Source: an uncultured Chloroflexia bacterium
GTDB lineage: Bacteria > Chloroflexota > Anaerolineae > Anaerolineales > Anaerolineaceae
Assembly: GCA_963704755.1 (NCBI GenBank)
Contig: OY969938.1
Span: 4,650,001-4,682,000 of the forward strand
DNA: 32,000 nt
Direction of reading: 5' to 3'
The position numbers were made by a program, and so were the translations under genes. Positions 2,663-31,213 of this stretch are shown here, in pieces. How positions within the stretch are numbered: position 1 is the stretch's first letter; each line of letters opens with the position of its first letter. The notes under the pieces are model-generated. The model saw only the letters and a list, made by a program, of their open reading frames with translations, was not told the origin of the DNA and did no database searches.

Positions 2663-2900
2663 AGATGGCTCCTAAAATGGCAAGTAGTAGTACGAATCTG
2701 ATTCACCGGAAAAGTTGATTTAAATTATTTTTATAGCTCTCTGCATAGCAGATTATCCCCTCCATTATGAGGTTCCTGTTTTATCTAGATTGCTACAGAA
2801 GGATTAATTGGCATATCAATCTCTTCTATCACCTGCTCAACATTATCAAACCAGTAATTCCGATATCCATCCACAAGAAATATTTTGACCGTTCTGCCAC

Positions 2901-7371: not shown

Positions 7372-7375
7372 TCTT

Positions 7376-9013: not shown

Positions 9014-9149
9014 ATTGAAAAACCTTGCTTCTAGAATAGTTAAAACCTGTTTTTCTGTTTAATTCTGCACCAGCATTTGCTCTAAGCATAAAAATTATCC
9101 TGATTTATCAAAATATCTTATTCTGACATCTCTATTCGACATATATTGT

Positions 9150-11444
9150 TTAAGGTGCAACCATAGGGTATAAACGAATTTTTCCGCAACCCCCGCCGCA
9201 TTCCCAATAACTACCGCTTTTATTTTTAGTAGGAAGTTGATGACATTTTTCACATAAGATGGCATCTGCAAAAGCGAGCACATTTTCTCCAAAGGTTCGA
9301 ACCATATTATCAGAAATTCCTGCCGAATCAGGGCTAAAATGCGCTCCTACCTGGTTACGAATCCATGTATCTGCTGTCACCGACTTAATCAAGGGAATTA
9401 AATCAATCGACTTTGTAATGATACCTGCATCATCCAGATGCTCCACCCGTAGCAATTTTTGTAGATTTTTGTCAATGCAATCCGCTAATTCTCCTAAAGT
9501 GTACCGCGCCAGTTGTTTGCGTGGCAACCTGCATTGATAACGAAGGGTTAACTCGTCTAATAATTGCTCTAACAAAATTCCGGCTCGAGAAGCAATCGCT
9601 TGCCTGTCAACCTTCGGGGCAGCAACAACATTGCGCAATTCATTGACAGCTAACGGTGCATGACTATGTTTAATGCCACTTTGCAAATCCCAGCCATATA
9701 ATTCGATCAATTCCGCTGGCATTCCCTTCCCCTGTCGAACACGGTCAAACCAGGCTCGTGAATGAGTTGTGATGATCACATGGCCAAAGTTTGGTGCCTC
9801 ATCGTTAATAAGCTCAATCACCCGGTCAAGGTGCGGGTCATCCACAGACATTAGCACGTCATCTAATACAACAAGAGCATTTTCAGATTGTTTGGCTAGC
9901 GCCAGATAAACGCACAGACCCAATGTATCCAAATGAGCTTCACTATAATAGGCGACAGGAGAAATATCATTGTTGGTGCCAAATTTTCCCTTCATGGTGA
10001 GGGATCCTATTGTATTGGGTTTCATACCAAAACTAGGCTCACCAAGAGGCTCATTAGGATGGATACGAGCATAAAGTGCACTGACAGTTCCGCTAATTCC
10101 ATCAACAATATTTTGAACATGCTGCTTACGTTCCTGTTCGACAACAGCTAGTATTGCTCCCAACCGTTGGGAAACGGCATGTTTCATGGCTAATGATTGA
10201 TTTAGATCATCGATTGTTGCCAGATGAGTGCTAATTGCATTATGTTGCGCGATTTTTTGATCCCCAGAAACTATATCAAGTTCCAAATCAGATCGATTCG
10301 CAGACATTTTTTGAATTAATTGACGAAATTCATCTGATGCTGGCGAACTTGGAATTGCAGATAACCCCTTTGTTAATTTTGTTTTGGCAGGAAATAGCAA
10401 TTTGTGTAATTCATTCGCTGCGGATTGCCACTTTAGGTTAGCGACACTCCTTGCACCTTCTGATTGCTGAATTGTTGATTTATATTGCTCTATTTGATTT
10501 ACTATGGATTGAATTGTTTTTAGTTGAGTTAATTGATAAGTTATTTGAGATAGTAAGGAATCGTGCGGTTCTGGTTTTGAACAAACCGGGCAACTATTCA
10601 TTTCTGAATGTTTCTCCAAATAGGTTTGTGCACTTTGAAGCGTTGAGACTAAATCTGCATTTGTTTGCTTTAAACTAGCTTCTTCTAGTTGTTTTAATAA
10701 TGTCGTTTGTTTCAATAAGTTAGTATTATATTTAGCTTCTTCTATGACTAATTCATTCTCTGATCGCACAGCAGTATCAAATAAATCTCTCAATTCTTTG
10801 TCTTTGGCTAATTGAGTTTTCAAATCCTCAATAGATAGTTGAATAGCTCCTCGTGCCCAGAATAAACAATCACCAACAGGTTTTCCTTCAGCCTCCCAAA
10901 ATTGCTGTAAAGTTGTTTCAGCGGTATCTTTTTGAGTAATAGAACGTGTTACATCCTCTGAGGCGGTTTTATTTGCTGCACGCAATGAAGTCTCAGCACT
11001 TTCGATTTGAGGAAAGACAATAAATTCCTTAAGGTTTTTATATCGATCTCCATCATTAACTTCCATTATGCGGGTGATATCAGCTCGCCGAAGAATAAAT
11101 GCACGGGGTTGAGAAGATGGAGTTGTTACTGGTCTCGCGCCCTGCAATTTTGCATTCCAGGTCTGACCTCCATATATCATTTCTATTTGCAAGTCCTTTG
11201 GTTGCCCCAATGAAGAAACTATGTGAGTATGATATGGGGTTGTTCCATTACGGAGCTGAAGAGAACCAAATTCATTATTGCAAATAAAATCCAGCGCATC
11301 GGCAACAGAAGATTTTCCTGACCCATTTTCACCAAAAATAAGGGCTATTGAATGTTGTTGTTGGAACTCGAATACCACTGGTAAAGTTGCCCCCCGGAAA
11401 GAAGAAATCTGCAATCTTTCAATGCGTTTCTTACCTGTGGCCAT
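9150..11444 (-). CDS. SMC/Rad50-like ABC ATPase with a coiled-coil CxxC hook and a C-terminal HEPN-like + Cys4 module (RloC-like candidate anticodon nuclease)
   Basis: Walker A is FGENGSGKSS. A ~330-aa heptad-rich insert has CPVC (nt 10581-10592) near its midpoint. The signature-like segment is YSEAHLDTLGLCVYLALA, Walker B is ALVVLDDV and the H-loop is IITTHS. A ~170-aa tail carries RNQVGAH (nt 9339-9359) and CEKC...CGGGC (nt 9186-9254). The ATG at 11444 is preceded by GGGAGG; the track start at 11471 is a TTG. Confidence 0.7.
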   Translation of the reverse strand: MATGKKRIERLQISSFRGATLPVVFEFQQQHSIALIFGENGSGKSSVADALDFICNNEFGSLQLRNGTTPYHTHIVSSLGQPKDLQIEMIYGGQTWNAKLQGARPVTTPSSQPRAFILRRADITRIMEVNDGDRYKNLKEFIVFPQIESAETSLRAANKTASEDVTRSITQKDTAETTLQQFWEAEGKPVGDCLFWARGAIQLSIEDLKTQLAKDKELRDLFDTAVRSENELVIEEAKYNTNLLKQTTLLKQLEEASLKQTNADLVSTLQSAQTYLEKHSEMNSCPVCSKPEPHDSLLSQITYQLTQLKTIQSIVNQIEQYKSTIQQSEGARSVANLKWQSAANELHKLLFPAKTKLTKGLSAIPSSPASDEFRQLIQKMSANRSDLELDIVSGDQKIAQHNAISTHLATIDDLNQSLAMKHAVSQRLGAILAVVEQERKQHVQNIVDGISGTVSALYARIHPNEPLGEPSFGMKPNTIGSLTMKGKFGTNNDISPVAYYSEAHLDTLGLCVYLALAKQSENALVVLDDVLMSVDDPHLDRVIELINDEAPNFGHVIITTHSRAWFDRVRQGKGMPAELIELYGWDLQSGIKHSHAPLAVNELRNVVAAPKVDRQAIASRAGILLEQLLDELTLRYQCRLPRKQLARYTLGELADCIDKNLQKLLRVEHLDDAGIITKSIDLIPLIKSVTADTWIRNQVGAHFSPDSAGISDNMVRTFGENVLAFADAILCEKCHQLPTKNKSGSYWECGGGCGKIRLYPMVAP

Positions 11445-11643
11445 CAAGTCCTCCCGTTTCTTCGATTTCAATTGTTTTTTCTATCAATAATTGCCAATCC
11501 TCTGGTTTGGATACGCCTCCTACCAATATTTTTATTGCTTCGGGACCATATATCGCAGGTAGTAACCCTTCACTAACTAACCGGGTCACAGTCTTTTTTG
11601 CTAACAACTCGCAAGGTGTCGTGTACGGAATTTCATCTATCAT
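11431..11643 (-). CDS. Small (70 aa) acidic-tailed protein of unknown function, translationally coupled to the ABC ATPase
   Basis: A strong SD (GGAGGA) lies 6 nt upstream of the ATG at 11643. Its last 14 nt overlap the ATPase ATG (GATGGCCACAGGTAA). I recognise no family. Confidence 0.6.
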   Translation of the reverse strand: MIDEIPYTTPCELLAKKTVTRLVSEGLLPAIYGPEAIKILVGGVSKPEDWQLLIEKTIEIEETGGLDGHR

Positions 11644-11708
11644 TTTTTATCCTCCACTAATTGCAAATCCCCACCAATTAGAAAACGTCCATTGTTACAA
11701 AAGATTTG

Positions 11709-14561
11709 CTAAATAATCTCCCAACGGATGCAAAACAATTTTGAAAGCGATTGCTGTTGAGTCATTCGGCTCTCAGTATCCCTAATTATTTCATCTCTTT
11801 GAGTGTCTATTTCGTCTTGCGCTTGGAAAAGAGCCCGACGTTTCTCCGTTCTTTCTTTTTCAAGAGATTTCACTTCTTTTTGAGCCGCAAGTTTTTCTTC
11901 TAAAGTCAAAGCAGCGATGGCATAACGCCGGGCTTCTTTGATTCTTCGATCATATTCTTTAATTTCCCGCTCCAACATGACTTTGCGATCATCCGACCAG
12001 GCTTCTAATTTACTAATTTCGGCCTCGAAGATTTTTGCATTCCTCAGACTAATTTCTAACAGAATGGTTTTTTGAACATCCGCTGTTTGACCATCAAGGG
12101 TAGGGGGTGGTTCGATCAGTTCGGTTCTACCATTAACTTGTGCAGGCAGTTGAAACAATCTTCGAGCTATGTCTTCTTCTAATAATTTCCCATCATCGCT
12201 GAATGCAGTCCAAATCAGCCTATCTTCAATTTGAGAAAGTGACTCAACAGATAATTGAGATAATTGACACCACCCTTGTTTTACTGGCAAGTTTTCAAGA
12301 ATGGTAACTTTATTGGGGGCACTGGAATAATCAAAAATCAATTCAGCGAGCACTAGAGAACGCTTTTTCGCCTGTTCAATTACTTGTTGCGCCAGAGGAT
12401 GAGATAAACGATAAAAATATGCATCGCCTGAACGGCGCGGCAACTCATAAAGACCGGTCGGTATATCCTCATGCCCATAACGGCCATCATTCAGAACAAA
12501 CGAAGAATCGCTAATAAAATTGGCATGGCCATCTAATTCAAAAGCGGTCAGCTGCATTAACATCTGCTCATACCGATTAAGATTTTGTCGTGTATCGATT
12601 GCTCGAATACGCAACTTCTCTTTTACTTCATCATCAAAATGTTCTAGCAAAGATTGGCGAGCATAAGTCATAGCTTCTTGGATTTGGTCACTTAATTCTT
12701 CTTGCAATTGATCAAAAGAGGCGTTTATTTCTTCTGAGGTTCGACAATTCTGGTAAATATCAGCAATGCGCGTCTCAAAGGCAACACCTGATTCAATTGC
12801 ACCTAAAACTTCATCACTGGCACCAAAGACTCCAGCAAAAAGTTGAAATTTTTGGTCCAGAAGTTCATAAACTCGTTGATCAGCAGCGTTCTTTTTGTTT
12901 AGAAAATTAACCACAACAACGTCGTATTGCTGACCATAACGATGACAACGGCCAATTCGCTGTTCCACCCTTTGTGGGTTCCATGGAAGATCATAATTTA
13001 CAACCAAAGAACAAAATTGCAAATTAATACCTTCCGCTCCCGCTTCTGTAGCGATCATAATCTGACCTTCATCATGAAAGTAATCTACCAGCGCGGAACG
13101 CATATCAGCTGTTCGGGATCCGGTTACCCGGTCTGTACCTTTGAATCGGGTTATCCAATCGTTATAAATTTGTTTCGATTTAGCATCATTGTTGGAACCA
13201 TTAAACAAAACGACACCATCTTGATATGGGCTGTCTATCAATAATTTTAAAAGGTACTCCTGGGTTCGGCGAGATTCAGTAAAAATAAGTGCTTTGGGGG
13301 CTGAACCGACTTCAGCTGCTTTGGTAAAAGCTGTCTCTAAGGCTTTCAGTAAGGCTTTCCCTTTAGCGTTTTCGGTAATCGATATTGCCAGGGTGTAAAA
13401 CCCCCTTAGTTCAATAATCTCCGCTTCCAGGGCTTTTCGCTCGGTTTGTGTCAGATCAGGAGGTTCATCCTGCTGATCCCACTCCTCGGCTATTTCATCC
13501 AAAGCTTCATAATCCTCATCCAAAGTATCTTCAAGCGATTTGAGAGATGATTCGGCTTCATCGAGTTTTTTTTGCAGGCGTTTAGCCATTTTATCGAGGG
13601 CACTTGCAATAGCAAAGGAAGAACTTGCAAGCAATTTTCTAAGGACCAAAGTAAGCAATTGGCGTTGACTCGAAGGCAAAGCATGCAATTCTGGTTTACG
13701 CAGATATTCGGAAACCAGGTCATAAAGGATTAATTCGTCATTGCCGGGGGTAAATTCCTGTAAAATGGGCAAGCGTTTGGTGTACTTAATGTAAGGCAGG
13801 ACTTGGCTGCGTAAAGTGCGCTGGCATATAGGTTTTAACCTTGCCTTGAGGGTTAGAAAAGTACTTGGATCATTTAGATCACTGAATTGCTCTCGAAAAC
13901 TTCTAAGATCACCAAAGGTATACTCGTCAATAAAACTGACTAAACCAAATAATTCAAGCAGCGAATTTTGCAAGGGTGTAGCGGTTAGTAATAATTTATT
14001 AAACCCTTTAAGTGTGTCGCGAAGTTCATTTGCAATTTTATTGGATTTTTTGTACACATTACGGAGGCGATGAGCTTCATCAATCACAACCAGATCCCAT
14101 GGAATGCGCATAACCTCAGAAGATTTATTGCGGGCAAAATGATAAGAGCAGATGGTTATATTATCCCCTTCAAAGGGATTGCGTTTACTTTCTTTATAAA
14201 TATGATTGAATGATTTTGTTTCCAGAATTTGACATGGTAAAAAGAATTTTTCTTGCAATTCCTGAAACCATTGTTTGCGTAAATTTGAGGGGGTAATAAC
14301 TAAAATATGTCGTTTTCGTTCTGCCCAACATTGTGAAATGACAAGTCCAGCCTCAATGGTTTTTCCCAGCCCTACCTCATCGGCTAACAAAGCCCCTTTT
14401 GAAAGTGGCGATCCAAAGGCAAATAAGGCGGCATCAACTTGATGCGGGTTCAGATCCACTTGTGCATCCACCAGAGTTCCAGCAAGTTTTTCAGGATCAT
14501 CAGCTGAATGTCGCTTGGTTAATTCGTAGGCAAAGTATTTAGCGTGATATGCAGTAAGCAT
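11709..14561 (-). CDS. SNF2/RAD54-family SF2 helicase with a ~400-aa C-terminal extension ending in a coiled coil
   Basis: 950 aa. Motif I is LADEVGLGKTIEAG, motif II is VVIDEAHRLRN, motif III is LLLTATPLQNSLLELF, and motifs V/VI are ATEAGAEGINLQ...NPQRVEQRIGRCHRYGQ. The N-terminal YHAKYFAYELT and the charged heptad-rich tail (aa ~850-930) lie outside the helicase core. Confidence 0.9.
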   Translation of the reverse strand: MLTAYHAKYFAYELTKRHSADDPEKLAGTLVDAQVDLNPHQVDAALFAFGSPLSKGALLADEVGLGKTIEAGLVISQCWAERKRHILVITPSNLRKQWFQELQEKFFLPCQILETKSFNHIYKESKRNPFEGDNITICSYHFARNKSSEVMRIPWDLVVIDEAHRLRNVYKKSNKIANELRDTLKGFNKLLLTATPLQNSLLELFGLVSFIDEYTFGDLRSFREQFSDLNDPSTFLTLKARLKPICQRTLRSQVLPYIKYTKRLPILQEFTPGNDELILYDLVSEYLRKPELHALPSSQRQLLTLVLRKLLASSSFAIASALDKMAKRLQKKLDEAESSLKSLEDTLDEDYEALDEIAEEWDQQDEPPDLTQTERKALEAEIIELRGFYTLAISITENAKGKALLKALETAFTKAAEVGSAPKALIFTESRRTQEYLLKLLIDSPYQDGVVLFNGSNNDAKSKQIYNDWITRFKGTDRVTGSRTADMRSALVDYFHDEGQIMIATEAGAEGINLQFCSLVVNYDLPWNPQRVEQRIGRCHRYGQQYDVVVVNFLNKKNAADQRVYELLDQKFQLFAGVFGASDEVLGAIESGVAFETRIADIYQNCRTSEEINASFDQLQEELSDQIQEAMTYARQSLLEHFDDEVKEKLRIRAIDTRQNLNRYEQMLMQLTAFELDGHANFISDSSFVLNDGRYGHEDIPTGLYELPRRSGDAYFYRLSHPLAQQVIEQAKKRSLVLAELIFDYSSAPNKVTILENLPVKQGWCQLSQLSVESLSQIEDRLIWTAFSDDGKLLEEDIARRLFQLPAQVNGRTELIEPPPTLDGQTADVQKTILLEISLRNAKIFEAEISKLEAWSDDRKVMLEREIKEYDRRIKEARRYAIAALTLEEKLAAQKEVKSLEKERTEKRRALFQAQDEIDTQRDEIIRDTESRMTQQQSLSKLFCIRWEII

Positions 14562-14600
14562 TTTTTTCTCAGTTTAATAAGTGGTATTTTTGCATGAAGA

Positions 14601-14843
14601 TTATGCTAAAGGAGAAATCTTTTCGTAAACTAAAAGATCCCCCACTTGGCAATCAAAATATTCACACAAAGCCTTAATCACGGGTGCGTCATAGCGGGAT
14701 ACTTGATTGTTCGCCCAGGAGTTGAGTGTAGACCAGGCAATGCCGGTCTCGCGCTGCACATCCATCAAAGCAATGTTTTGCTGCTGTATGGTCGCTTTTT
14801 GAGCCAACAAAATGCGAAAGTGATTGACAATTTTTCCGGTCAT
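14601..14843 (-). CDS. XRE/Cro-C1-type helix-turn-helix transcriptional regulator
   Basis: 80 aa. NIALMDVQRETGIAWSTLNSWANN fits the XRE HTH pattern and ALCEYFDCQVGDLL is the typical C-terminal helix. GAGG lies upstream of the ATG. Confidence 0.8.
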   Translation of the reverse strand: MTGKIVNHFRILLAQKATIQQQNIALMDVQRETGIAWSTLNSWANNQVSRYDAPVIKALCEYFDCQVGDLLVYEKISPLA

Positions 14844-14871
14844 ATGTGACCTCGCGTAGCATCTTTCTTAA

Positions 14872-14900
14872 ATCATAGGTGAGGACACACAATTTGTCAA
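14872..14900 (-). promoter_or_regulatory. Near-consensus sigma-70-type promoter for the XRE gene (and possibly the whole minus-strand train)
   Basis: On the minus strand: TTGACA (14900..14895), a 17-nt spacer, then TATGAT (14877..14872), about 28 nt upstream of the XRE ATG. Confidence 0.5.
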
Positions 14901-14949
14901 CGAAAATAGAGCACAAGTCGATTATGATCCATGTTTTTCAAATAATGAT

Positions 14950-14973
14950 AAAATAGAATATAAATTCTATTTT
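14950..14973. promoter_or_regulatory. Perfect palindrome AAAATAGAAT-ataa-ATTCTATTTT in the divergent intergenic region (candidate operator)
   Basis: Perfect 10-bp arms at 14950-14959 and 14964-14973, lying between the minus-strand XRE gene and the plus-strand module. Confidence 0.4.
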
Positions 14974-15197
14974 TAAAAGTCCAATAATAAAATCACCGGT
15001 AAAAAAAGACATGATCAACCTAAGTACCTATCAACTCTTCTTTCAGCCAGTTCATTCGCCTCCACAACGTTGGATAGTAACCATAGTGGCTTGCTTCGGT
15101 TCTGTCTATGAGCCAGGGTTATTCACATACCAAGTTTTAACAACAAATGCTCTGCAGATTTTCTGTGGCAAATGGGGAAATATTGGGAGGATTGTTT

Positions 15198-16121
15198 ATG
15201 AGGAGATCAAACCAGGTAAAAGCCAAATTCGCTTTGAGCCGCTACAAGCCATCAATTCTGATGAGTTACCTAAATATGAAATACTTATTCGCGAGGAGGC
15301 AGTTGGTCCTAGAGGAAGAACTCGCTGAAATTTTAGGTCAAGAAGACATTGTCAAATTAAACCTAATGGAAGCACTTTACGAAAAACGTACTGAACGTCG
15401 ACAAGAATTTATCGCTTGGTTAATCGGCCGGCTTCAGATCTTTGGGTATCATAATCTTCCACCGGATATGAAACCAAATCCTACTGAAAAAATTGAAGAA
15501 CATTTTGATTTTCCCATTAAAGGTACACCAGCTGAGTTTGGCGTCATGCTCCGGCAGTTTACCCAGATACTACATTCTCAAACTGAACATCACCAATTAG
15601 TATGCCAAACCCTTAATCCGGGCAACCATAAAGATATTAGTAGCATTCCTTCAGATGCTAACCCTGTTGAGGTAAAGCTTACTGCTGGAAAAAACCTGCT
15701 ATCAATTCATGCCCATGTTCTTCCCTCAACAGGATCGTTATTGCGTATACATTTGAATGGGGATAGAACCCTATGGCTCCTATGGGATAAAATTCGAGAT
15801 GAACTTGAAAAATTGGGGTGGTTTTCATTACCTGATATTCCAGAAGAACCTGCTCGTAATGAAATTAAACCAGAACCCCAACCTCAAGAAAAATTACCTC
15901 CTTCTGAAGTATGGATGGGCATTCCAGATGTGGGTGCTAACCGGGAGATACTCCGTTTCTGGTATCAGGGATTTACTTGCGGGCAGATTGCTGTTCGAGT
16001 AGGTCTGAATGGAAAAACGGTCCTCAATCGGATCAATAAATTAAGAAATGAATTTGGTATCCAGATAGTTCCTTATCGAAAGTCAAATTTCATCAAGAAA
16101 CCGAAAGATAAACCCTCCTGA
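15198..16121 (+). CDS. Hypothetical protein with a C-terminal sigma-70 region 4/LuxR-like HTH. It may be the 3' part of a longer gene beginning at 15011.
   Basis: GGGAGG lies 7 nt upstream of the ATG at 15198. The C-terminus is ILRFWYQGFTCGQIAVRVGLNGKTVLNRINKLRNEFG. ORF 15011..15328 overlaps it in the -1-relative frame and reads like genuine protein. Confidence 0.55.
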   Translation: MRRSNQVKAKFALSRYKPSILMSYLNMKYLFARRQLVLEEELAEILGQEDIVKLNLMEALYEKRTERRQEFIAWLIGRLQIFGYHNLPPDMKPNPTEKIEEHFDFPIKGTPAEFGVMLRQFTQILHSQTEHHQLVCQTLNPGNHKDISSIPSDANPVEVKLTAGKNLLSIHAHVLPSTGSLLRIHLNGDRTLWLLWDKIRDELEKLGWFSLPDIPEEPARNEIKPEPQPQEKLPPSEVWMGIPDVGANREILRFWYQGFTCGQIAVRVGLNGKTVLNRINKLRNEFGIQIVPYRKSNFIKKPKDKPS

Positions 16122-16131
16122 CTTATTATTT

Positions 16132-16192
16132 GGGATAAAAAGGGATATTCAAGGGATAAAGAGGGATATGCAGGGCACTTGAACAAGGGATA
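16132..16192. repeat. Iteron-like array: five GGGATA repeats plus one degenerate GGGCA, at roughly one helical turn spacing
   Basis: GGGATA starts at 16132, 16142, 16153, 16163 and 16187; GGGCA starts at 16173. Spacings are 10, 11, 10, 10 and 14 nt. The array begins 11 nt after the HTH gene stop. Confidence 0.7.
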
Positions 16193-16210
16193 TTCCAAAT
16201 GGCAGAATGG

Positions 16211-16241
16211 CGACGTTGAATCAAACGTCGTCATTTTTTTT
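16211..16241 (+). terminator. Rho-independent terminator/attenuator between the iteron array and the replication operon
   Basis: CGACGTT (16211-16217) pairs with AACGTCG (16224-16230) around a 6-nt loop. TCA and then eight T (16234-16241) follow. The AAAGGAG RBS of the next gene starts 5 nt later. Confidence 0.55.
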
Positions 16242-16256
16242 GCCAAAAGGAGTTCT

Positions 16257-16460
16257 ATGCTCAATTGTCTCAAAGTTTTGTTTGAACAGCCGGAGTTTTC
16301 AGCCCTGATCCATCTCTCTGAACGTGAGATGCGCACGCCGGCTGACCAGGTGCGCCTCATCGTCCGACTGGAACTTGTCCGGCGGGGATTGCTGCAGGAT
16401 ACCCTACCCAACCTCAATCATCCACAGGAGGATAGCCTCAAACATGAATCAACCTGCTGA
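16257..16460 (+). CDS. Small ribbon-helix-helix (CopG/Arc-like) protein, candidate
   Basis: AAAGGAG lies 5 nt upstream of the ATG at 16257. LKVLFEQPEFSALIHLSEREMRTPADQVRLIVRLELVRRG fits a beta-strand/helix/helix RHH pattern. The upstream part of the track ORF (16179-) lacks an RBS. Confidence 0.45.
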   Translation: MLNCLKVLFEQPEFSALIHLSEREMRTPADQVRLIVRLELVRRGLLQDTLPNLNHPQEDSLKHESTC

Positions 16461-16668
16461 AACCCTCCAATTGTCACAGGAGGAGCAGGGCAGGTTGTTA
16501 GCGCGCGTCTACGCTTTCATCCTCAGCGATCAATTTACAGGAACACAAAAAGAAATTAATGCGGTCGAAACAGACCAGAAAATCTCAAAGAATAGCAAGA
16601 ACAATAAACACGTAATCTCACAAGAAATAGACGCTCAATTTGTCCAAAACCAGGAGCCATTGCCATGA
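16444..16668 (+). CDS. Small hypothetical protein (74 aa)
   Basis: The ATG at 16444 overlaps the end of the RHH gene. Its stop overlaps the next gene's start (ATGA at 16665-16668), which suggests operon-style coupling. Confidence 0.4.
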   Translation: MNQPAETLQLSQEEQGRLLARVYAFILSDQFTGTQKEINAVETDQKISKNSKNNKHVISQEIDAQFVQNQEPLP

Positions 16669-19313
16669 GTATCCAATATTCGACACTCTCTGAAAATCAT
16701 CTCAAGATGTTATCCATAGAATCGGGTATCTCGGATCAGATGATAAAAGAGCGTGGCTATCGCACGATCACAAGCGAAGGCGACCTGGTACAGTTCGGTT
16801 TTTCGCCGGCACAGCGTCGCGTACCCGGACTGTTAATTCCTCTCCACACCACCGATGGCAAGATCGGCCTGCACGTTTACCGTCCGGATAACCCCCGAAC
16901 CTACGAGGATCGCAGCAAGCGGGAAGCAGATGGGCTACGCCCAGTCAAAGTGTTGAAGTACGAGATACCGAAAGGAGCCGGCGTAAGGGTGGACTGCCCG
17001 CCGGCCTGCCTGAAAACGCTGAAAAATCCAACCATTCCGCTCTTTATCACCGAAGGGCAGAAGAAAGCGGATTCATTGGCATCCCAGGGTGCTTGCGCCA
17101 TTGATTTGCTGGGTGTTTGGAACTTCAAAGGCCGCAACGAATTCGGTGGAACAACTATTCTGGCTGACTTTGATTTCATCGCCTGGGAGAATCGTTTGGT
17201 GCGGATCGTCTTCGACTCAGATGTGATGTACAAGCCCTCGGTACGCATGGCGTTGGAACGCCTGACCGAGATCCTGCAGCGCAAAGGAGCTATCGTCTCA
17301 GCTATCTACCTTCCTAACCATCCTAGCGGGATCAAATGGGGTGTGGATGACTGGTTGGCTGACGGACATACCTTGCAAGACCTGGAAGCATTAACCGAAC
17401 AGCCGCGACCGGTTCCCCAGCCAGCACAGCCTACCATCGAATTGTTGGATGAACCTTCACCTACTATCACACGCCCGCTGAGCCTGGTAGGCAAACAAGC
17501 CTATGCAGCCACTTGGCTTCCAGTACGTACTACTCGACGAGAAGTTCTGGATAAAGAGGGCAACCTGCAGGTTCATAATCCGCCACTGGTTGAAGAAAGA
17601 TTGTGCCTTTTTATTATCCGTAATGATGGACAGGTGTTCAGTGAAATTAGCGATGGCCAAACCACTCGGTTAATGAGTGAGTTAGGTTTATCTACTAATT
17701 TTCATGAGATTGTACCGGTTGAGAAACGTTGGTCTACACGCGGCGTACGAGCCTATGTCCAGGGTCAACGTCCCAATCCAGTTGATACCTTCACTAAGAT
17801 CGTAGCAGTCATCAATCGTTTCCTAGACTTTGACCGTTCACTGGGTGATCAGCAATCCATGGCTGAACTCATTGGTTGCTATATCATGGGGACTTACTTG
17901 TTGGATGCCTTCAATGTGATCGGTTTCCTCTGGCCGAATGGAGAAGCAGGATCAGGAAAAACCAACCTGCTGATCGTGGTAACCGAAATGGCTTATCTGG
18001 GTCAACTGATCCTGGCCGGCGGCAGCTTTGCCAGCTTACGCGACCTGGCTGATTACGGAGCTACCCTGGCCTTCGATGATGCTGAAAACATTTCCGATCC
18101 CAAACAGACGGACCCAGATAAACGTGCCCTGCTGCTAGCCGGCAACCGGCGCGGATCGAGTGTTCCGCTCAAAGAAGCAGATGGACCAGGAAAGTGGAAG
18201 CTGCGTTATGTGAATGCCTACTGTCCACGGTTATTCTCTGCCATCCGTATGCCGGACGCGGTGTTGGCGTCCCGTACGATTGTCATTCCTCTCATTCGCA
18301 CCGCAGACCGCAATAAAGCCAATTTCGACCCGTTGGATTATGCTCTTTGGCCACATGATCGTAAGGCACTGCAGGATGAATTATGGGCAATTGGATTGGC
18401 TAACCTGCCAATGCTGCATGGTTATGAAAATAAAGTAGCTCAAAATTCCCGTTTACGCGGACGCAGCCTTCAGCCCTGGAAAGCCATCCTTTCTGTAGCT
18501 GCCTGGTTGGATGATGTTGATCAAAACCATTGTCTCTTACGAAGTTTCATCCAGGGAAAAGACCAGGTGGTGATTGGCGGATTGTGGCAACGATTAGAAG
18601 AAATGTCATGGCGTTACCAGCAGGAAGAGACTAGTGATTTGCAATCCAGTGATCTGACCCTGTTAGTTCTTCAAGGGATGTGCAAATTAGCTGCTGACAA
18701 GAGTGACATTAAAGACATTAGTGACGTTGCTGCTTCCACTTGGACTTTCTCTACTTCACAAATCAGCGAAGCGGCGCAGACTATTGCTGAAAGTAACGAA
18801 GCTGATATTGACAAGGAGTCCATAACATCCCGAAAGGTTGGCCGACTGCTTGGCAAGCTGCGTCTGCGTAAAACACGCGAAGCCGGCAAAGGCACCCGCC
18901 AATGGCAAATCACTCTAGCTGAGTTGGAACGTTGGGCAAGGGTGTACGGGATTCATTTCCCCGTTGAGCTTATCCGGGAAACCAATGTCACTGATGTCAC
19001 CAATGGCATAACGTCACAGGACGATGCTCCCCCATGGCAGAATTGCGAAATTGCTCTTCGATTACCAGCCGATAACAAGCTACCTACGATTGGTGGCTTT
19101 TGGCGCCGGCTGCCGGACGGTCGCTTGGAAGCTGGTTATAGCTCGGAGGAATTAGCCCTGGCCTTGACTCTCTTCCTCGATAAGGATGTGGACGCTGAAA
19201 GATTCGTAAAAACGTCCGCTCAACAGTTAAGAAAACGGCTCATTGAGGTCACGGGTGGAGAGGTACTGCATATTCAATTGAAGGAAATTGTAAAAGAGAA
19301 AAGGGATGAATGA
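16665..19313 (+). CDS. Replication protein: N-terminal Toprim-like (DUF3854-type) domain + central P-loop NTPase
   Basis: 882 aa. LFITEGQKKADSLASQGACAIDLLGVWNF...RIVFDSDV resembles a Toprim E...DxD arrangement. Walker A is PNGEAGSGKTNLL and Walker B-like is TLAFDDAE. This architecture is typical of primase/helicase-type proteins of plasmids, satellites and integrative elements. Confidence 0.65.
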   Translation: MSIQYSTLSENHLKMLSIESGISDQMIKERGYRTITSEGDLVQFGFSPAQRRVPGLLIPLHTTDGKIGLHVYRPDNPRTYEDRSKREADGLRPVKVLKYEIPKGAGVRVDCPPACLKTLKNPTIPLFITEGQKKADSLASQGACAIDLLGVWNFKGRNEFGGTTILADFDFIAWENRLVRIVFDSDVMYKPSVRMALERLTEILQRKGAIVSAIYLPNHPSGIKWGVDDWLADGHTLQDLEALTEQPRPVPQPAQPTIELLDEPSPTITRPLSLVGKQAYAATWLPVRTTRREVLDKEGNLQVHNPPLVEERLCLFIIRNDGQVFSEISDGQTTRLMSELGLSTNFHEIVPVEKRWSTRGVRAYVQGQRPNPVDTFTKIVAVINRFLDFDRSLGDQQSMAELIGCYIMGTYLLDAFNVIGFLWPNGEAGSGKTNLLIVVTEMAYLGQLILAGGSFASLRDLADYGATLAFDDAENISDPKQTDPDKRALLLAGNRRGSSVPLKEADGPGKWKLRYVNAYCPRLFSAIRMPDAVLASRTIVIPLIRTADRNKANFDPLDYALWPHDRKALQDELWAIGLANLPMLHGYENKVAQNSRLRGRSLQPWKAILSVAAWLDDVDQNHCLLRSFIQGKDQVVIGGLWQRLEEMSWRYQQEETSDLQSSDLTLLVLQGMCKLAADKSDIKDISDVAASTWTFSTSQISEAAQTIAESNEADIDKESITSRKVGRLLGKLRLRKTREAGKGTRQWQITLAELERWARVYGIHFPVELIRETNVTDVTNGITSQDDAPPWQNCEIALRLPADNKLPTIGGFWRRLPDGRLEAGYSSEELALALTLFLDKDVDAERFVKTSAQQLRKRLIEVTGGEVLHIQLKEIVKEKRDE

Positions 19314-19542
19314 AGAATTTATTAGTGATCCCTATGCGGTGCTTGCCCTGGCAGTTGTGTTCAAAGCTGCCTTGGATCTCAAGAGTAAGAATCCGACCTG
19401 TGTTTTGGAAGCTCGGACCTGGCTGCAATTCGTGGGTTTGAGCTGGTGCCAAATGCTGGGAATTTCAGAAAAGGAGATATCCAAATGGGTTGCTGGGAAC
19501 TATTCTCTTCCACCCAATGCTCACCGTAACTGGCGTTATTAA
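19306..19542 (+). CDS. Hypothetical protein (78 aa)
   Basis: The ATG overlaps the end of the replication gene by 8 nt. No recognisable motif. Confidence 0.4.
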   Translation: MNEEFISDPYAVLALAVVFKAALDLKSKNPTCVLEARTWLQFVGLSWCQMLGISEKEISKWVAGNYSLPPNAHRNWRY

Positions 19543-19604
19543 AGACTTTCCAGGTTGGCTCGCTACAACCGGAGCAATTCTTTGCAATTTCGAATACTCG
19601 CTTA

Positions 19605-19636
19605 TTTGTTCTATGGTATATAATAGATAGAACAAA
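19605..19636. promoter_or_regulatory. 10-bp inverted repeat enclosing a TATAAT box (candidate promoter/operator for the membrane-HTH/integrase operon)
   Basis: TTTGTTCTAT (19605-19614) and ATAGAACAAA (19627-19636) are perfect inverted repeats. The 12-nt spacer contains TATAAT (19619-19624). Confidence 0.35.
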
Positions 19637-19807
19637 ATAATAAGACGGTTCGTGCAGATGTAGCGAGCACCTACACGAACCTGACCCCAACCACCGTTCA
19701 AGCCGGCAGTAGGGGCTGATCATATTATAGCCGATCAGCCAGGATTCGCCCTCGGTGGGAGTTTATCACCGGGGGCATTCTATTGCCCCCTAATAAGGAG
19801 GCAATTT

Positions 19808-20593
19808 TTGGCTCTATTCTCTTTCGTCAACAAAATTCGAAATTCATTTTCGGAGATCGAAACCAATTTGGTTGATGGAATTGCAGCGATTGGTCCCTGG
19901 ATCACGCCACTCCCTAGTGCGGTGTTGGTAGCCAATGCAGTTGTGAAAGATTTGCATTGGATCCCTGCTTTAGGCTGGGTAACAGCCGCCATCATCGAAA
20001 GTCTAGGTCTGACCACTGTCAGTACCAGCTTATTGTTGTGGGATTACAACGCCGGTAAGCGCAAAACCGATCCAGGTGCTCCATTCTTATTGGCAGCATC
20101 TCTGGTAGGTGTCTACTTAGTCTCGACAATTGGTTTAACTGTTTTTCTGGATATCTTTCCTGAACTCGGAAGATATGCACCGGCTCTCTTCCCGTTGTTA
20201 GCTCTAGTGGGAGCGGTCAATCTGGCGTTGCGTTCTGGACACCGCCGGCGTCTATCTGGAATTGCTCAGGATCGAGCAGATCGTAAAGCTGAACGTCAAT
20301 CTTCCCGTCAAACTTTTACACAACCAGGCAATCCCCTGATGTCTAATTTAACGTCTAGTATTGTCAAAACTGACACTTCACTGGACAAAGCTCATGCGGC
20401 TCGAAAAGCCAATCTTACTGCCCGAATGGATAGTCTATTGACACTTTATCTTGACAATCCCCTTGTGGGCGCGACCGAAGCAGCTAGAGCATTAAATATT
20501 TCCAGACAGACAGTTTATACCTATCTAGATCAATTGGAAGCATCTGGAAGAATCCATCGAAATGGGCATGGCGTTGAAGTGATAGCAGAATAG
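19808..20593 (+). CDS. Membrane protein (about 4 TM segments) with a C-terminal HTH domain
   Basis: A TTG start lies 7 nt after AAGGAGG. There are four hydrophobic stretches in aa ~25-150, then a basic linker, then GATEAARALNISRQTVYTYLDQLEASGRI. It ends 10 nt before the recombinase gene. Confidence 0.55.
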   Translation: MALFSFVNKIRNSFSEIETNLVDGIAAIGPWITPLPSAVLVANAVVKDLHWIPALGWVTAAIIESLGLTTVSTSLLLWDYNAGKRKTDPGAPFLLAASLVGVYLVSTIGLTVFLDIFPELGRYAPALFPLLALVGAVNLALRSGHRRRLSGIAQDRADRKAERQSSRQTFTQPGNPLMSNLTSSIVKTDTSLDKAHAARKANLTARMDSLLTLYLDNPLVGATEAARALNISRQTVYTYLDQLEASGRIHRNGHGVEVIAE

Positions 20594-20603
20594 GAGGTTT
20601 TCA

Positions 20604-22284
20604 ATGGTAGCAACAAAACGCGCAATTATTTATTCCCGTGTTTCAACAGACGATCAGCGCTCCAACTATAGCGTTCCTACTCAAATAGCAGAATGTATGA
20701 AGTATTGCCAGAAGAATGGTTACACCTTGGTTGGGAATGCTTATGTTGATAAAAAAACAGGATTAGACTCTGAAAAAAACGAAAATTCTATTCCTGCGTA
20801 TGTAGATGATTACACTTCTCGGGAAATAAATCGTCCTAGTTTGGATGCGGCACTTACTTATCTGGAAGAATATGGATTCGACATAGTTGTGGTACTTTCC
20901 ATAGATCGCTTAGCAAGGGATCCATATATTCGTCAGACACTGGAACGCGAATTTTCCCGCCGAGGTGCAAATATTGAATTTGCTTTAGGGAATTACGAAG
21001 ACTCTCCGGAAGGGGAAGTTCGTAAAGATATGGATGCAACATTTGCCAAATGGGAAAATGCTAAACGTGTAGAGCGATGCAATCGTGGAAAACGCGGAAA
21101 GGCCGAGAAGGGATTATATGTGGGGGGAAGAACCCCTTATGGGTACGTTTTAGATTCCAAAGGAAAAGGAGGACTTTCAATTCATCCGGAACAATCTAAA
21201 GTCGTCCGCTTGATTTATTCACTTTATGGTGAGCAGAATTATTCAATGCATGGTATTCGTATGGACTTAGAAAAACGTGGGATTCCTTCGTATACTGGAA
21301 AACCTAATTGGCATTTATCGGCTATTCGAAATATTCTCATTAATACGGCGTATAAAGGATATGTCCATTACAACAAATCGGTTTGCAAGAGTAATTCGAA
21401 TCGCAAACCTCGTGAAAAGCATGAATGGATAAAGATCACAATTTCCCCTTTGGTTGATGAAATATTATTTGATCTTGTTCAAATCAGGATTAAAGATCAT
21501 CGAGAAGCATTACGCCGGCAAGCTCATCATTTTTACCTTTTATCTGGCATGATTCGTTGTTCAGAGTGTGGAAAACCATATAGGGCCAATTTTCAAAATG
21601 ACCGTCCCAAGCAAAATCGCAAAGCATACCGATCCTATCGTCACCGTAGGCAAGAAGGACAATGTATGGATAGGGAAATTACAGCAGTCCGTTTGGAAGA
21701 CAATGTATGGAATGAGGTTACGGATATGTTGATGAACACCGAAAAATTACAACAAGCCTATCACCAGGCGCAAATAGTAGATCAGGAAAATCGCTCCCGC
21801 TCACGGATTCACTTAGATGGTTATTATCATTCAGTGGAAAAATTTGAGCAGCAATTAAATAACTTAAATCGAGCTTATACTGATCCAGATATCCAAATGA
21901 CAAAAACCGAATATCTCTCTCAGAGGGTGCAGTTGGAGCACGAGTTGGTAGAAATTCACGACAAAATTAAAGAGATTGAAATCGGCTTCTACTGCGTTGC
22001 CATCCCAAGGTCAATTTGAGGATTTAGAGAATTTTGCTAAAAGCGTACGCGAACGGATTGCAAATGATGATTGGGATCCCTCTCCAGAGAGTAAGCGGCA
22101 GGTATTGGAGTTGTTGCACGCAAAGGTTATGCTCTCAAAAGATGGAACAGGCAAAGTGACTGGATGGTTTGGAGAAACGTCAGGGTTTTCGTACATACGC
22201 CGTTCACGTTCTGCCCGCCCGGCCCGGCCGAGCGGATATAGTCATATTGCAGCTCGCTGTCGTCGAGGGATAAGGAGGGGGTGA
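20604..22284 (+). pseudogene. Large serine recombinase (integrase), frame break near its 3' end
   Basis: The resolvase catalytic N-terminus is AIIYSRVSTDDQ...LSIDRLARD. The recombinase domain has GGRTPYGY. A zinc ribbon CSECGKPY and a coiled coil follow. The reading frame moves from 20604..22019 to 21976..22284 at about nt 21965-21980 (KIKEIE / KSASTALPSQGQFEDLENF). Confidence 0.85.
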
Positions 22285-22334
22285 TGTCGATCATATAGTG
22301 AGTATACCAAGCAAGTAGCGTCTGGGTATTGTAG

Positions 22335-22819
22335 AAAGCGATGAAATTGTCTCGAAATATGTTTTTCTTTCGTAGGGGCGAAGCCGCCGGCAGGCAGGCT
22401 TGGAAAGCGGATATGTATTGGCTCCGGCAGCTTCGTCCGCAACGCCGATCCGGGGGAAGGCCTGGCCAATTAACGGTGAACGATGTGGGATGTGCATTAC
22501 CAGGCTTTCAGTCCCTATACCCGATTGGCATTGAAGAGCGGCCTCGGTCTGGAGACCGGGCCGAACAATGGCTGCATATCGATTCAAAAAGAAACTTTGC
22601 TTTGAAAAATAGTGTTTTTCGGTAGGGGCGAAGCCGCCGGCAGGTGGGCTTGGAAAGCAGATATGCATTGGCTCCGGCAGCTACGCCCGCAACGCCGATC
22701 CGGGGGGAAGGCCTGGCCAATTAACGGTGAACGATGTGGGATGCGCATTACCAGGCTTTCAGGCCCTATACCCGATTGGCGCTGAAGAACGGCCTCGGTC
22801 TGGAGACCGGGCCGAACAA
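22335..22819. repeat. Tandem repeat, about 1.9 copies of a 250-bp GC-rich structured unit
   Basis: TAGGGGCGAAGCCGCCGGCAGG starts at 22373 and again at 22623, giving a 250-nt period. The units align along their length with scattered substitutions. Each ends with ATTGGC..TGAAGA.CGGCCTCGGTCTGGAGACCGGGCCGAACAA. Confidence 0.85.
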
Positions 22820-23010: not shown

Positions 23011-23674
23011 GAAAAAAACTGTTCTTGCCTCTCTTGATTCCTTTCCATACTTCACCATCGAAGCGATCAAACAGCTTCTGGACGATGAATCCGTGGCTGC
23101 CGGCACAATCCAAACTGGTTTGTATCGCTGGATGAAAGCCGGGCAGATTGTCCAGCTTAAAAAAGGCGTTTATATGTCGCGCCGCTTTTTCGAGCTTCAT
23201 CGCGCGGACGCCGAATTTGCGCCCATGGTCAGCGCAATTTTGATCCCCCAGTCCTATCTATCTTTGGAATATATTCTACAGCGTAACGCCATTCTCACCG
23301 AAATAACGTACCCGGTTACCGCAATCACGCTCAAGCAGACCCGTGTATTCGAAAACAAACTGGGGGCTTTTACTTACCGTAATATCAAAACAGATCTCTA
23401 TCAAGGGTTTAAATTTTCCGAATATATGGGCATCCCCATAGCCCAGGCCACGGTGGCAAAGGCGTTGTTTGATTTTCTCTATTTCCGTCCCTGGAAGGGC
23501 GGCCGGCGATTGGCCGGCTATGACCTGGCAGAAGATTTGCGGCTTAACCTGGAGGACTTCTCAGAAAATGACCGGATTGAATTTGGGTCCTTCGTTGAGA
23601 TCAGTAAAAGTAAAAAGATGAACCAAATTATGGAAAACCTGAGGAAAACCGTATGGCCACATTACTCCAATTGA
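23009..23674 (+). CDS. abiEi: AbiEi-family type IV toxin-antitoxin antitoxin / transcriptional regulator
   Basis: 221 aa. The N-terminal wHTH region has WMKAGQIVQLKKGVYM (typical G-x-h-x-x-h-x-x-G-h-Y). SYLSLEYILQRNAILTE and ITLKQTRVFENKLGAFTYRNIK match AbiEi patterns. It is followed by an overlapping AbiEii-type gene. Confidence 0.75.
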   Translation: MKKTVLASLDSFPYFTIEAIKQLLDDESVAAGTIQTGLYRWMKAGQIVQLKKGVYMSRRFFELHRADAEFAPMVSAILIPQSYLSLEYILQRNAILTEITYPVTAITLKQTRVFENKLGAFTYRNIKTDLYQGFKFSEYMGIPIAQATVAKALFDFLYFRPWKGGRRLAGYDLAEDLRLNLEDFSENDRIEFGSFVEISKSKKMNQIMENLRKTVWPHYSN

Positions 23675-24484
23675 TGCAAAACGTTCTGTCTCAAAAGGAC
23701 CCATTGTTGCCCAATGAGACCAGGCGGGTGATCCTCAAGGAATTTCTGCAGGCCAATACGCTTGACTTCCTTTATAATCACCCGGCCTATCGCAAACTTT
23801 AATTTCTATGGCGGCACCTGCCTACACGTGATCTACGGCCTCAACCGGCTTTCGGAAGATATTGACCTGGATAACAGCAGCAGGATTGATTTGAGTAATC
23901 TCGCAAACGACCTGCTGACTTTCTACCGTTCTAACGTCGGGTATGCCGATGTGACTGCCAAAACCCAGATCGGGGAGTGGGGTGTCCGCCGTACCACATT
24001 GAAGTTCCCCATTCTCTATGCTTTGGGCTTGACCTCGCATGCCAACGAACCACTGCATCTAAAAGTGGAAGTCAGCCTGCACAAGCAAACTGCTATCTTG
24101 CGCCGGACGCCTGTATTGCTGTTTGGCAAAAGTTTTGTGGCCGCGCATTTTTCGCTGGAAACGATGATGGCCGGGAAGATGTTGGCTTGCCTGGAACGAG
24201 ACTTTCAGAAGGGCGAAGGAGCTACGATCAAAGGCCGCGATTTTTATGACCTGCTGTGGTTTATGCAGCAGAAAATTATGCCGCTGGAGGAAAAGCTTGC
24301 AAATGACGGTCGCCAGCCTTATACGGTTCGATCTGCAATGGAATTGCTGGGGGAGAAGATCGCAGAATTGAAAATCTCTGACCTGGCAGAAGATTTGCTG
24401 CCCTTTTTTGAACAGAGGTCTTTCATCGAAGCCTGGCTGGAAGGGTTTCAGGAGAATTTTTTGGAGTATGTGAAGAATTATTAA
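23653..24484 (+). pseudogene. abiEii: AbiEii/AbiGii-family nucleotidyltransferase toxin, frame break about 49 codons in
   Basis: GAGGAA plus ATG at 23653 overlaps abiEi by 22 nt and reads MATLLQLMQNVLSQKDPL...HPAYRKL, then TAA at 23800. The next frame continues NFYGGTCLHVIYGLNRLSEDIDLD (the FxGGTxL...R.SEDIDh NTase motif) through to 24484. Confidence 0.75.
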
Positions 24485-24596: not shown

Positions 24597-25065
24597 CGAC
24601 TAGCCGGTGAACAGCGTCATGAGGATATTAAAAAAAGAGAAATAGAAGCTCCTTTGTCTGGGGGAAGACCGGTGTTGAAGAGCTGCCTCGGCTTGGAAAC
24701 CGGGCCGAACAATGGCTGCATATCGATTCAAAAAGAAACTTTGCTTTGAAAAATATTGTTCTTCGGTAGGGGCGAAGCCGCCGGCAGGCAGGCTTGGAAA
24801 GCAGATATGCATTCGCTCCGGCCGCTTCGCCCGTAGCGCCGGCAGGCATAAGAATAGGAAAATTACAACGGGTGCTTGCTTTTTCCTGCCGGATCCCAGG
24901 GAATTTTTTTCGCTGCAGCGGGCAAAGCAGCCGGTAGATGGGCTCAGGTTGGTAGAATGGAGCTTGGCCCGGCGGCTTCGCCCCTACAGTGGATAAGGAA
25001 AGAACAGAAGCCAGGGTATGATTGGCATTGAAGAGCGGCCCCGGTCTGGAGACCGGGCCGAACAA
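24597..25065. repeat. Dispersed, rearranged copy of the 250-bp repeat family. It contains a perfect 19-bp inverted repeat pair 184 nt apart.
   Basis: 24690-24830 aligns closely with the unit junction at 22540-22690. GTAGGGGCGAAGCCGCCGG (24766-24784) is the exact reverse complement of 24969-24987. The terminal ATTGGCATTGAAGAGCGGCCCCGGTCTGGAGACCGGGCCGAACAA lies at 25021-25065. Confidence 0.8.
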
Positions 25066-28611: not shown

Positions 28612-28668
28612 GGGGTGTTTTTATTGTATTTCGGGTGCTTCGCTCGTGAAATACAATAAAAACACCCC
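28612..28668. repeat. Perfect 21-bp-arm palindrome (15-nt loop) in an intergenic region
   Basis: GGGGTGTTTTTATTGTATTTC (28612-28632) is the exact reverse complement of 28648-28668. Confidence 0.9.
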
Positions 28669-30047: not shown

Positions 30048-30092
30048 TTTTGAGTGTTATTGTGGGGCGTAGCCCCACAATAACACTCAAAA
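30048..30092. repeat. Perfect 21-bp-arm palindrome (3-nt loop) in an intergenic region
   Basis: TTTTGAGTGTTATTGTGGGGC (30048-30068) is the exact reverse complement of 30072-30092. Confidence 0.9.
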
Positions 30093-31158: not shown

Positions 31159-31213
31159 TCCGGGATTGAGGTGTATGCGGGGGCTTCACCTCCGCATACA
31201 CCTCAATCCCGGA
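31159..31213. repeat. Perfect 22-bp-arm palindrome in the divergent intergenic region
   Basis: TCCGGGATTGAGGTGTATGCGG (31159-31180) is the exact reverse complement of 31192-31213. Confidence 0.9.

Follow-up and report, generated by a model that had tools for sequence, protein, structure and literature searches.

The DNA analyzed here is a stretch of 32,000 nucleotides (the window) from an uncultured Chloroflexia bacterium of the family Anaerolineaceae (assembly GCA_963704755.1, contig OY969938.1, positions 4,650,001 to 4,682,000). The left part of the window (929-14561) is a train of defense-type cargo genes on the minus strand. The middle part (14601-22284), which a first-pass annotation had singled out as a satellite-like integrative element, holds a small gene for an XRE-type regulator and, divergent from it, a plus-strand module of replication and recombination genes. 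It seems likely to us that this module (15011-22200) is the right-hand backbone of a site-specific integrative, defense-carrying island of Anaerolineae that lies in the gene arfB and is probably self-replicating, and that the XRE gene belongs to a cassette that leads the cargo and is probably not the repressor of the island. The GC content of the cargo is 0.37-0.44, and that of the backbone is 0.47-0.51, which is close to that of the right flank. As the first-pass annotation had stated, we found no virion or conjugation domains in the window (Pfam, PADLOC, NCBIfam, and PHROGs).

To place the backbone in context, we used a comparison set of the contexts of close replicase homologs and of 80 loci from species-representative genomes. 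In more than 20 Anaerolineae genomes, the genes of the backbone come in the same order and encode a protein of about 365 amino acids, small proteins of 67 and 74 amino acids, a replicase-type protein of about 882 amino acids, proteins of 78 and 261 amino acids, and a serine recombinase of 543-569 amino acids. Among the carriers are the isolates Levilinea saccharolytica, Bellilinea caldifistulae, and Ornatilinea apprima. This order is kept in loci L001-L027 and L058, whose replicases are 72-93% identical. Because the whole gene order is kept in more than 20 genomes, chance open reading frames (ORFs) are excluded. Indeed, all of the genes that had been listed for 14601-22284 are present, as judged by Pfam, by ORFs, and by relatives, with corrections to several of them.

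The last gene of the backbone (20604-22200, plus strand) encodes a large serine recombinase with Resolvase, Recombinase, and Zn_ribbon_recom domains (Pfam E values of 6.6e-23, 1.9e-18, and 2.2e-9) and an N-terminal YSRVST motif. It matches a PHROG integrase (E 6.6e-83), and its best solved relative is the SPbeta integrase. Its best match in NCBIfam is CcrB (99.5 bits, against a cut-off of 900), followed by XisF. In the window, the ORFs 20604-22019 and 21976-22284 (471 and 102 amino acids, versus 543-569 in relatives) are one gene, which is interrupted by a +1 frameshift near 21975, where the window has GAAA and L001 has GAA.

In the window, L001-4, L015, L026, and L027, the 3' end of the recombinase gene meets the antisense start of arfB. 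The first 31 codons of host arfB (MIDITPSLSLDDSELQYDYIRSAGPGGQNVN; 22202-22294, minus strand; Pfam RF-1 positions 5-33, E 1e-6) encode M-I-[DE]-I-T...GPGGQNVN and are cut right after the GGQNVN motif, while intact ArfB genes from metagenomes (137-141 amino acids) read on as GGQNVNKV(S/A)TAVQLRF. So, the island lies inside arfB, right after the GGQ codons, at about 22195-22204. Five independent junctions (window, L001, L015, L026, and L027) align across this right junction, or attR crossover region (22195-22204): the element side, ...TTTTCGTACATACGCCG (...TTTTCGTACAYACGCCG), is invariant, and the host side, TTCACGTTCTGCCC (TTNACRTTYTGNCC), differs only at third codon positions. The interval 14601-22284 as first drawn thus runs about 85 bp too far to the right: its end (22202-22284) is host DNA, the antisense of the truncated arfB. 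AbiEi/AbiEii genes lie beside the start of arfB in the window, L001, and L015 and not in L026 or L027.

A second lineage of the family (L005-L012, L014, L016, L017, L019, L021-23, L025, and L058) has another target. Its recombinase is only about 30% identical to the arfB type, and the remaining backbone is 70-93% identical. Here the 3' end of the recombinase gene overlaps the start of the gene for mevalonate diphosphate decarboxylase (MVD); the element encodes MSTSTATAVSHPNIA, and the host sequence diverges after ...AACATCGCATT. As five near-identical elements share the sequence ATG...CCTAACATCGCATT and diverge beyond it, the first 15 codons of MVD, a new N-terminus, are supplied by the element. 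The right flanks of this lineage are syntenic (Peptidase_M50, HEAT, and UvrB), and the left flanks are not. In sum, 5 arfB and 14 MVD junctions, all of them attR, lie at the same nucleotide positions, and one backbone has two recombinase types and two integration targets. That the backbone is combined with exchanged recombinases at these two targets shows it to be both mobile and modular. Its presence at two chromosomal targets in several genera supports the earlier claim that the element integrates site-specifically and has a replication module and a large serine recombinase, and it excludes the alternative that the region is conserved chromosomal backbone. (Two metagenome-assembled genomes carry two backbone or replicase copies each, L021 with L022 and L020 with L024. 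L021 and L022 each adjoin the start of an MVD gene, which points to a mixture of strains or to a pair of MVD loci.)

A cargo hotspot adjoins the backbone on the left, with different and mostly defense genes in each relative. In the window, the minus-strand train includes a DrmD-like SNF2 helicase gene (11709-14561; PADLOC E 2.5e-206), a gene for an SMC/LmuB-like ATPase (within 929-14561), and genes for two AIPR/AbiU-like proteins (929-2662 and 7376-9013) that flank a type III Mod/Res pair. The Res gene (2901-5602) is split into three overlapping ORFs, and the adjoining Mod gene is intact. These genes do not make up a DISARM system, in which DrmD would be joined by DrmA, DrmB, and DrmC or by a methylase partner: the DrmD-like helicase alone scores, and its neighbors are the LmuB/SMC-like ATPase and an AIPR protein. 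We also surveyed the left flanks of 14 distinct elements (84 ORFs). Type I restriction-modification systems were present in four elements and type III-like methylase/helicase pairs in three; the other finds were BrxL, Z1/DUF4420/DUF6339, a KAP NTPase, and AAA_21 with DUF4276. The variable defense cargo among these 14 elements bears out the idea of a defense hotspot beside the backbone. The cargo differs in every relative, even those with backbones more than 90% identical to the window's, so the genes at 15-22 kb and the defense train do not form one unit of inheritance.

The left end of the island lies beyond the stretches that were read, so the island is more than 22 kb long in the window and more than 26 kb in its closest relative. 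The 10 kb further to the left in that relative (L180), which we reached via its leftmost gene, again holds defense-type and mobile genes (an HhH-GPD glycosylase, a Dcm methylase, an ORC/Cdc6-like protein together with an HD-CE protein, an IS256-type transposase, a tyrosine integrase, and a PLD nuclease) and no virion or transfer genes. Also, no remnant of the MVD N-terminus was found in the left flanks of the relatives.

The largest backbone gene (16665-19313, plus strand) encodes a replicase-type protein of 882 amino acids, with a DUF3854 (Toprim-like) domain at residues 119-232 (Pfam E 2e-19), a Walker A motif (GSGKT) at 429-433, and DDxE at 471-474. Both motifs are invariant in 16 replicase homologs. 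Of its more than 1000 homologs, those that are named belong to Anaerolineae. (A cyanobacterial plasmid replicon was considered and was dropped once the homologs turned out to be from Anaerolineae.) A plasmid collection gave no match to the window at the DNA level. At the protein level only the DUF3854 part matched, with about 30% identity and 12-25% of the replicase aligned; these matches include plasmid-borne MobF relaxase genes that contain a DUF3854 domain. The CyRepA Rep proteins of cyanobacterial plasmids have an N-terminal DUF3854 domain (Toprim-related) that is followed by an NTPase/helicase-type domain, and they support autonomous replication (PMC10079941). The replicase shares this plan of DUF3854 and NTPase domains (PMC10079941). 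Unlike CyRepA, it has no match to a curated family model (no NCBIfam match at E ≤ 0.01) and no full-length similarity, and its gene is integrated in a chromosome beside a recombinase instead of being on a plasmid.

Relatives of the replicase with about 50-55% identity are found in phage contigs of IMG/VR (L170 at 15396-20940, L172, L169, and L081), a few kb from genes for the large terminase, portal, head morphogenesis, scaffold, and capsid or major head proteins. This implies that the replication module of the backbone is related to that of true tailed phages. No virion genes lie near any member of the window's own backbone family.

Two noncoding features precede the small genes. Five copies of GGGATAW (starting at 16132, 16142, 16153, 16163, and 16187, with a spacing of 10-11 bp) form an iteron array at 16132-16193 on the plus strand, which is a putative origin or a putative set of regulator binding sites. 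It is followed by an A-tract, a 14-bp hairpin, and a T-tract (16204-16238, plus strand). The iterons and the hairpin are kept across the family; in L021 the first gene has diverged, and the repeats differ too (GTGATAT). Across 14 sequences, 3 of the 14 pairs of the hairpin have compensatory changes (RNAalifold), and the element could serve as a terminator-like structure that works in both directions or as the hairpin of an origin. From the DUF3854 domain, the invariant Walker motifs, the iterons, the covarying hairpin, the precedent of CyRepA, and the phage relatives, we infer that the 882-amino-acid protein acts in replication.

The other backbone genes, all on the plus strand, are less easily labeled. 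The first one (15011-16121; about 365 amino acids in relatives) is present in all of the backbones and is split between two frames in the window by a +1 frameshift near 15318. Its product has a weak C-terminal helix-turn-helix (HTH) of the LuxR/GerE type (GerE E 1e-4 in the L007 ortholog, which is below the Pfam threshold). The 67-amino-acid protein (16257-16460) was first described as a ribbon-helix-helix protein. The gene itself holds up, as it is called in relatives and its ribosome-binding site and ATG are conserved, but the label is unconfirmed: no family matches, and Pfam at E ≤ 1 gave nothing usable for this protein or for the conserved 74-amino-acid protein (16444-16668), the 3' end of whose gene overlaps the replicase start. 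The conserved 78-amino-acid protein (19306-19542) is a candidate directionality factor, given a faint MerR/HTH_17 (excisionase-type) signal in an ortholog (weak, at E 0.012-0.057). The 261-amino-acid protein (19808-20593) carries hydrophobic segments towards its N-terminus and an HTH at its C-terminus (matched by several HTH models with E of about 4e-5, below threshold). Its gene always adjoins that of the recombinase, and the two proteins may work together as a pair. At L187 (1-1481), a 41% identical homolog of this protein is encoded directly beside a serine recombinase in an unrelated backbone, with Prim-Pol and AEP proteins in place of the DUF3854 replicase.

The XRE gene (14601-14843, minus strand) encodes a regulator of 80 amino acids (Pfam HTH_26 E 1.3e-14) and heads the defense operon. 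As the first-pass annotation noted, the defense train is directly downstream of this gene and co-oriented with it; the gap to the DrmD-like gene is 39 bp and has no terminator. The XRE promoter (14872-14921, minus strand) has a -35 element (TTGACA, 14900-14895) and a -10 element (TATGAT, 14877-14872) that together match the consensus at 11 of 12 positions, as in a strong promoter of the sigma-70 type, and with the box CGACTTGT (14913-14921) it forms a predicted autoregulatory region.

The distribution of the XRE gene does not follow that of the backbone. Just 2 of the 17 backbones with enough left flank have it (the window and L007), and between these two the XRE proteins are 87% identical versus 28% for the downstream helicases, with DNA homology ending at the XRE stop codon. 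There are 142 clusters of XRE homologs, at 68-95% identity. In all six of the contexts that we compared (window, L007, L184, L185, L187, and L188-191), the gene is directly upstream of a defense operon; the distance is about 100 bp in L007 and 8-50 bp in the other five. When these contexts are aligned, about 95 bases upstream of the gene are conserved, and they comprise a CGACTWGT box, TTGACA, 17 nucleotides, and TA(T/A)GAT; across the six independent contexts, the box and the -35 and -10 elements vary little or not at all. The short gaps and the conserved promoter fit co-transcription of the defense operon with XRE.

What lies on either side of the cassette varies. In L184, it heads a type I restriction-modification operon, and on its other side are a divergent AEP primase-helicase and a tyrosine integrase. 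In L185, it heads BrxA, BrxB, an MmeI-type methylase, and GmrSD, and on its other side are response regulator, NUDIX, and ABC-transporter genes. In L187, it heads a NERD helicase, BrxC-PglY, and a methylase, opposite AEP and Prim-Pol genes, HTH_17, the homolog of the 261-amino-acid protein, and the serine recombinase. In L188-191, it heads a type I restriction-modification operon with an hsdS shufflon, and another serine-recombinase backbone is on the other side. (At L188, downstream of the cassette, pieces of hsdS in both orientations surround a tyrosine recombinase at 10821-14642, which looks like a specificity-subunit shufflon.) So, the cassette is found beside four kinds of mobile backbone and once, in L185, beside chromosomal-looking genes. 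Judging from this distribution, we take the XRE gene to be a member of the defense load and not of the island backbone.

The palindrome AAAATAGAAT-ATAA-ATTCTATTTT (14950-14973), which lies upstream of the first backbone gene, had been suggested as the site that the XRE protein binds. It is outside the XRE cassette, only the window and L007 have it in its exact form, and none of the other XRE contexts contains it. AGAAT-N2/N7-ATTCT variants of it lie upstream of the first backbone gene in L001, L006, and L009, which lack XRE. We therefore think that the palindrome is part of the backbone promoter, and the suggestion of an XRE site is not supported.

Controller (C) proteins of restriction-modification systems and BrxR are similar to the XRE protein in that a small HTH gene with its own conserved promoter/operator heads co-oriented and diverse defense operons. 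In contrast to these, the XRE protein is of the HTH_26 type and not WYL, a single cassette that is 75-95% conserved serves at least five unrelated types of system, and it sits at the junction of mobile backbones and cargo. Tentatively, this cassette of about 340 bp might be a universal leader of unrelated anti-phage operons (DrmD-like, type I restriction-modification, and BREX-like) in Anaerolineae, at the backbone-cargo junction of at least four backbones, where it might act both as a common expression switch and as a homology anchor for the exchange of cassettes. As a further part of this tentative idea, the island family would, in parallel, retarget itself by swaps of the serine recombinase, between the GGQ codons of arfB and the N-terminus of MVD.

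If the plus-strand module is the backbone of an integrative island, then the circle, once excised, would be copied from the region of the iterons and the hairpin by the DUF3854/Toprim and P-loop protein. The 365-amino-acid HTH protein would bind the iterons or its own palindromic promoter, and the 78- and 261-amino-acid proteins would assist or control the recombinase. The XRE protein would most likely autoregulate its own promoter and so set the expression of the downstream defense genes, like a restriction-modification controller protein.

Several results weigh against this proposal. We infer all of its binding and regulatory roles. Both ends of the island, its size, and its competence for excision are unproven: the 3' part of arfB, which would mark attL, was not found in the window, in the 88 element loci or the 10-kb left flanks of the relatives, or in L180, and the same species yielded neither a circular (attP) sequence nor an empty site. 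(The search for empty sites yielded 80 metagenome loci with intact arfB, from which a generic attB was derived, and none of these had synteny to the window's flanks.) A profile of the replicase had no match among PDB sequences, its AlphaFold model is mediocre (pLDDT of 68) and poor in the P-loop region, and a Foldseek search with this model against the PDB gave no match below E 0.1. The surveyed cargo also includes genes that are not for defense (glycosyltransferases, FTR1, and YkuD). Finally, five frameshifts fall within about 25 kb; the type III Res gene has two of them, and the recombinase, the first backbone gene, and AbiEii have one each. These may be real decay or errors of long-read assembly; the two that were resolved are a single extra A in short runs of A. 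As the recombinase and the first backbone gene are both frameshifted, the copy in the window may be immobile.

This condition of the window copy is also what might be expected if the region were a decayed prophage remnant or a fixed genomic island alongside which defense genes accumulated. Besides the frameshifted recombinase and first backbone gene, such a history could account for the broken type III Res gene, the RNase H pseudogene at the left edge, the missing attL, and the further insertions in the cargo of L180 (the IS256-type transposase and the tyrosine integrase). We find this rather doubtful, because more than 20 genomes of several genera have this seven-gene backbone intact and without virion genes, at two targets and with exchanged recombinases, which indicates a maintained lineage and not independent decay. 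Also, the frameshifts may be assembly errors, and AbiEii, which is outside the element, is frameshifted too. The phage kinship of the replicase raises another explanation, that the island is a true phage satellite, with a replication and integration module of phage origin that an Anaerolineae helper phage would induce and package. The use of this replicase family (at about 50-55% identity) by tailed-phage contigs, near terminase, portal, scaffold, and capsid genes, is consistent with this, as are the lack of virion genes in the backbone and a compact layout of regulator, origin, replicase, and integrase that resembles phage-inducible chromosomal islands (PICIs) and P4. However, searches with Pfam, PHROGs, NCBIfam, and PADLOC and with tblastn of phage structural proteins found no small terminase, capsid redirection, cos/pac, or head-tail connector genes in the window, in the 84 ORFs of the 14 cargo regions, or in L180. 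As the island is above the typical size of satellites and no helper phage is known, we consider a satellite to be unlikely. For the same reasons, and because attL was not reached, the minimal satellite layout that the first-pass annotation described is not established.

The first-pass annotation had also cast the XRE protein as a maintenance repressor of the plus-strand module, like cI or Stl, with the defense genes riding on the repressor transcript as rexAB does in phage lambda. The XRE gene is indeed divergent from the backbone, it adjoins and usually faces a mobile replication or recombination module in five of the six contexts, and its strong, conserved promoter is followed by the short, terminator-free gap before the DrmD-like gene. 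But 15 of the 17 backbones lack XRE, so the family manages without it, and in L185 the cassette faces a response regulator and other chromosomal-looking genes. Moreover, the conserved unit consists of the gene and about 95 bp upstream of it, and the palindrome is outside this unit. So, a cI-like role is improbable, and a leader of the defense operon, which heads unrelated operons elsewhere, explains the distribution of XRE better. Still less probable is an integrated plasmid, or an integrative mobilizable element that is moved by conjugation. A DUF3854 and helicase-type protein is a plasmid Rep in cyanobacteria, DUF3854 is also found in the MobF relaxase genes of plasmids, and iterons are typical of plasmid origins. 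Yet no relaxase, coupling protein, or type IV secretion domains were found in the window or in the sampled cargo, there is no DNA match to plasmid records, and the protein matches cover the DUF3854 domain alone. We consider both the integrated plasmid and the mobilizable element to be very unlikely.

A defense-carrying integrative island is the reading that we prefer, and it has counterparts among known elements. The staphylococcal cassette chromosome (SCC) is likewise put site-specifically into a conserved housekeeping gene by a large serine recombinase, and it has its own replication proteins, variable cargo, and no virion or conjugation genes. For replication, SCC elements rely on an MCM-like helicase (Cch), while the island has the DUF3854/Toprim and P-loop protein. 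Also, its recombinase is not a Ccr (see the CcrB score above), its targets are arfB and MVD instead of rlmH, its hosts are Chloroflexota, and its cargo is for defense and not for resistance. P4-like satellites and PICIs share with the island a compact backbone of regulator, origin, primase or replicase, and integrase, a variable anti-phage hotspot, and a replicase family in common with phages. In contrast to them, the island has a serine recombinase in place of a tyrosine integrase, no detected capsid redirection, terS, or cos, a hotspot that is outside the backbone towards attL, and a length of more than 22 kb. SprA of SPbeta and XisF of the fdxN element of Anabaena resemble the recombinase in having three domains and in inserting DNA inside a coding sequence, so that the gene is split. 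The identity to them is low, with scores under the family cut-offs, the island is not a prophage, and programmed developmental excision is not evidenced for it. In the literature library that was searched, we did not find a description of this island family, a link between DUF3854 and serine recombinases, or arfB as an integrase target. To judge from this, the family is previously undescribed, and its kind, a defense-carrying integrative island, is already known.

Some other features of the window lie outside the backbone. At the left edge, positions 1-300 (plus strand) encode the C-terminal end of a PD-(D/E)XK nuclease-type protein, which runs off the window and could be cargo or host. It is followed by the RNase H remnant (420-830, minus strand), with an RNase H1 N-terminal (Cauli_VI) domain (E 4.6e-20), an in-frame stop, and a shortened catalytic part. 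To the right of 22284 are AbiEi/AbiEii and then ordinary-looking genes on the host side, for an amino-acid permease, a pentapeptide protein, bPH, RRM, GrpB, and a deoxynucleoside kinase. The AbiEii toxin gene (23653-24481), which is outside the island, has its frameshift near 23800 relative to the 278-amino-acid ortholog in L001. A unit of 251 nucleotides occurs as 1.8 tandem copies (93% match) at 22368-22819, and partial copies of it, one of them inverted, lie at 24667-25065, across AbiEi/AbiEii, so that this module is bracketed by repeats. The unit matches nothing in Rfam, and none of the related loci has a copy of it. Three perfect or near-perfect inverted repeats of 21-25 nucleotides (28612-28668, 30048-30092, and 31159-31213) lie between convergent or tandem host genes and are likely terminators. 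A tRNA scan found no tRNA gene in the window, and Rfam had no match anywhere in it.

To our knowledge, almost no mobile elements of Anaerolineae have been characterized, and the backbone described here defines a family of mobile islands in this class. It might provide genetic tools, namely two orthogonal serine integrases with known attB and a candidate origin or replicon. The XRE leader cassette is a testable handle on the regulation and the exchange of unrelated defense systems. More broadly, the island family extends defense hotspots on small integrative elements beyond Proteobacteria and Firmicutes.

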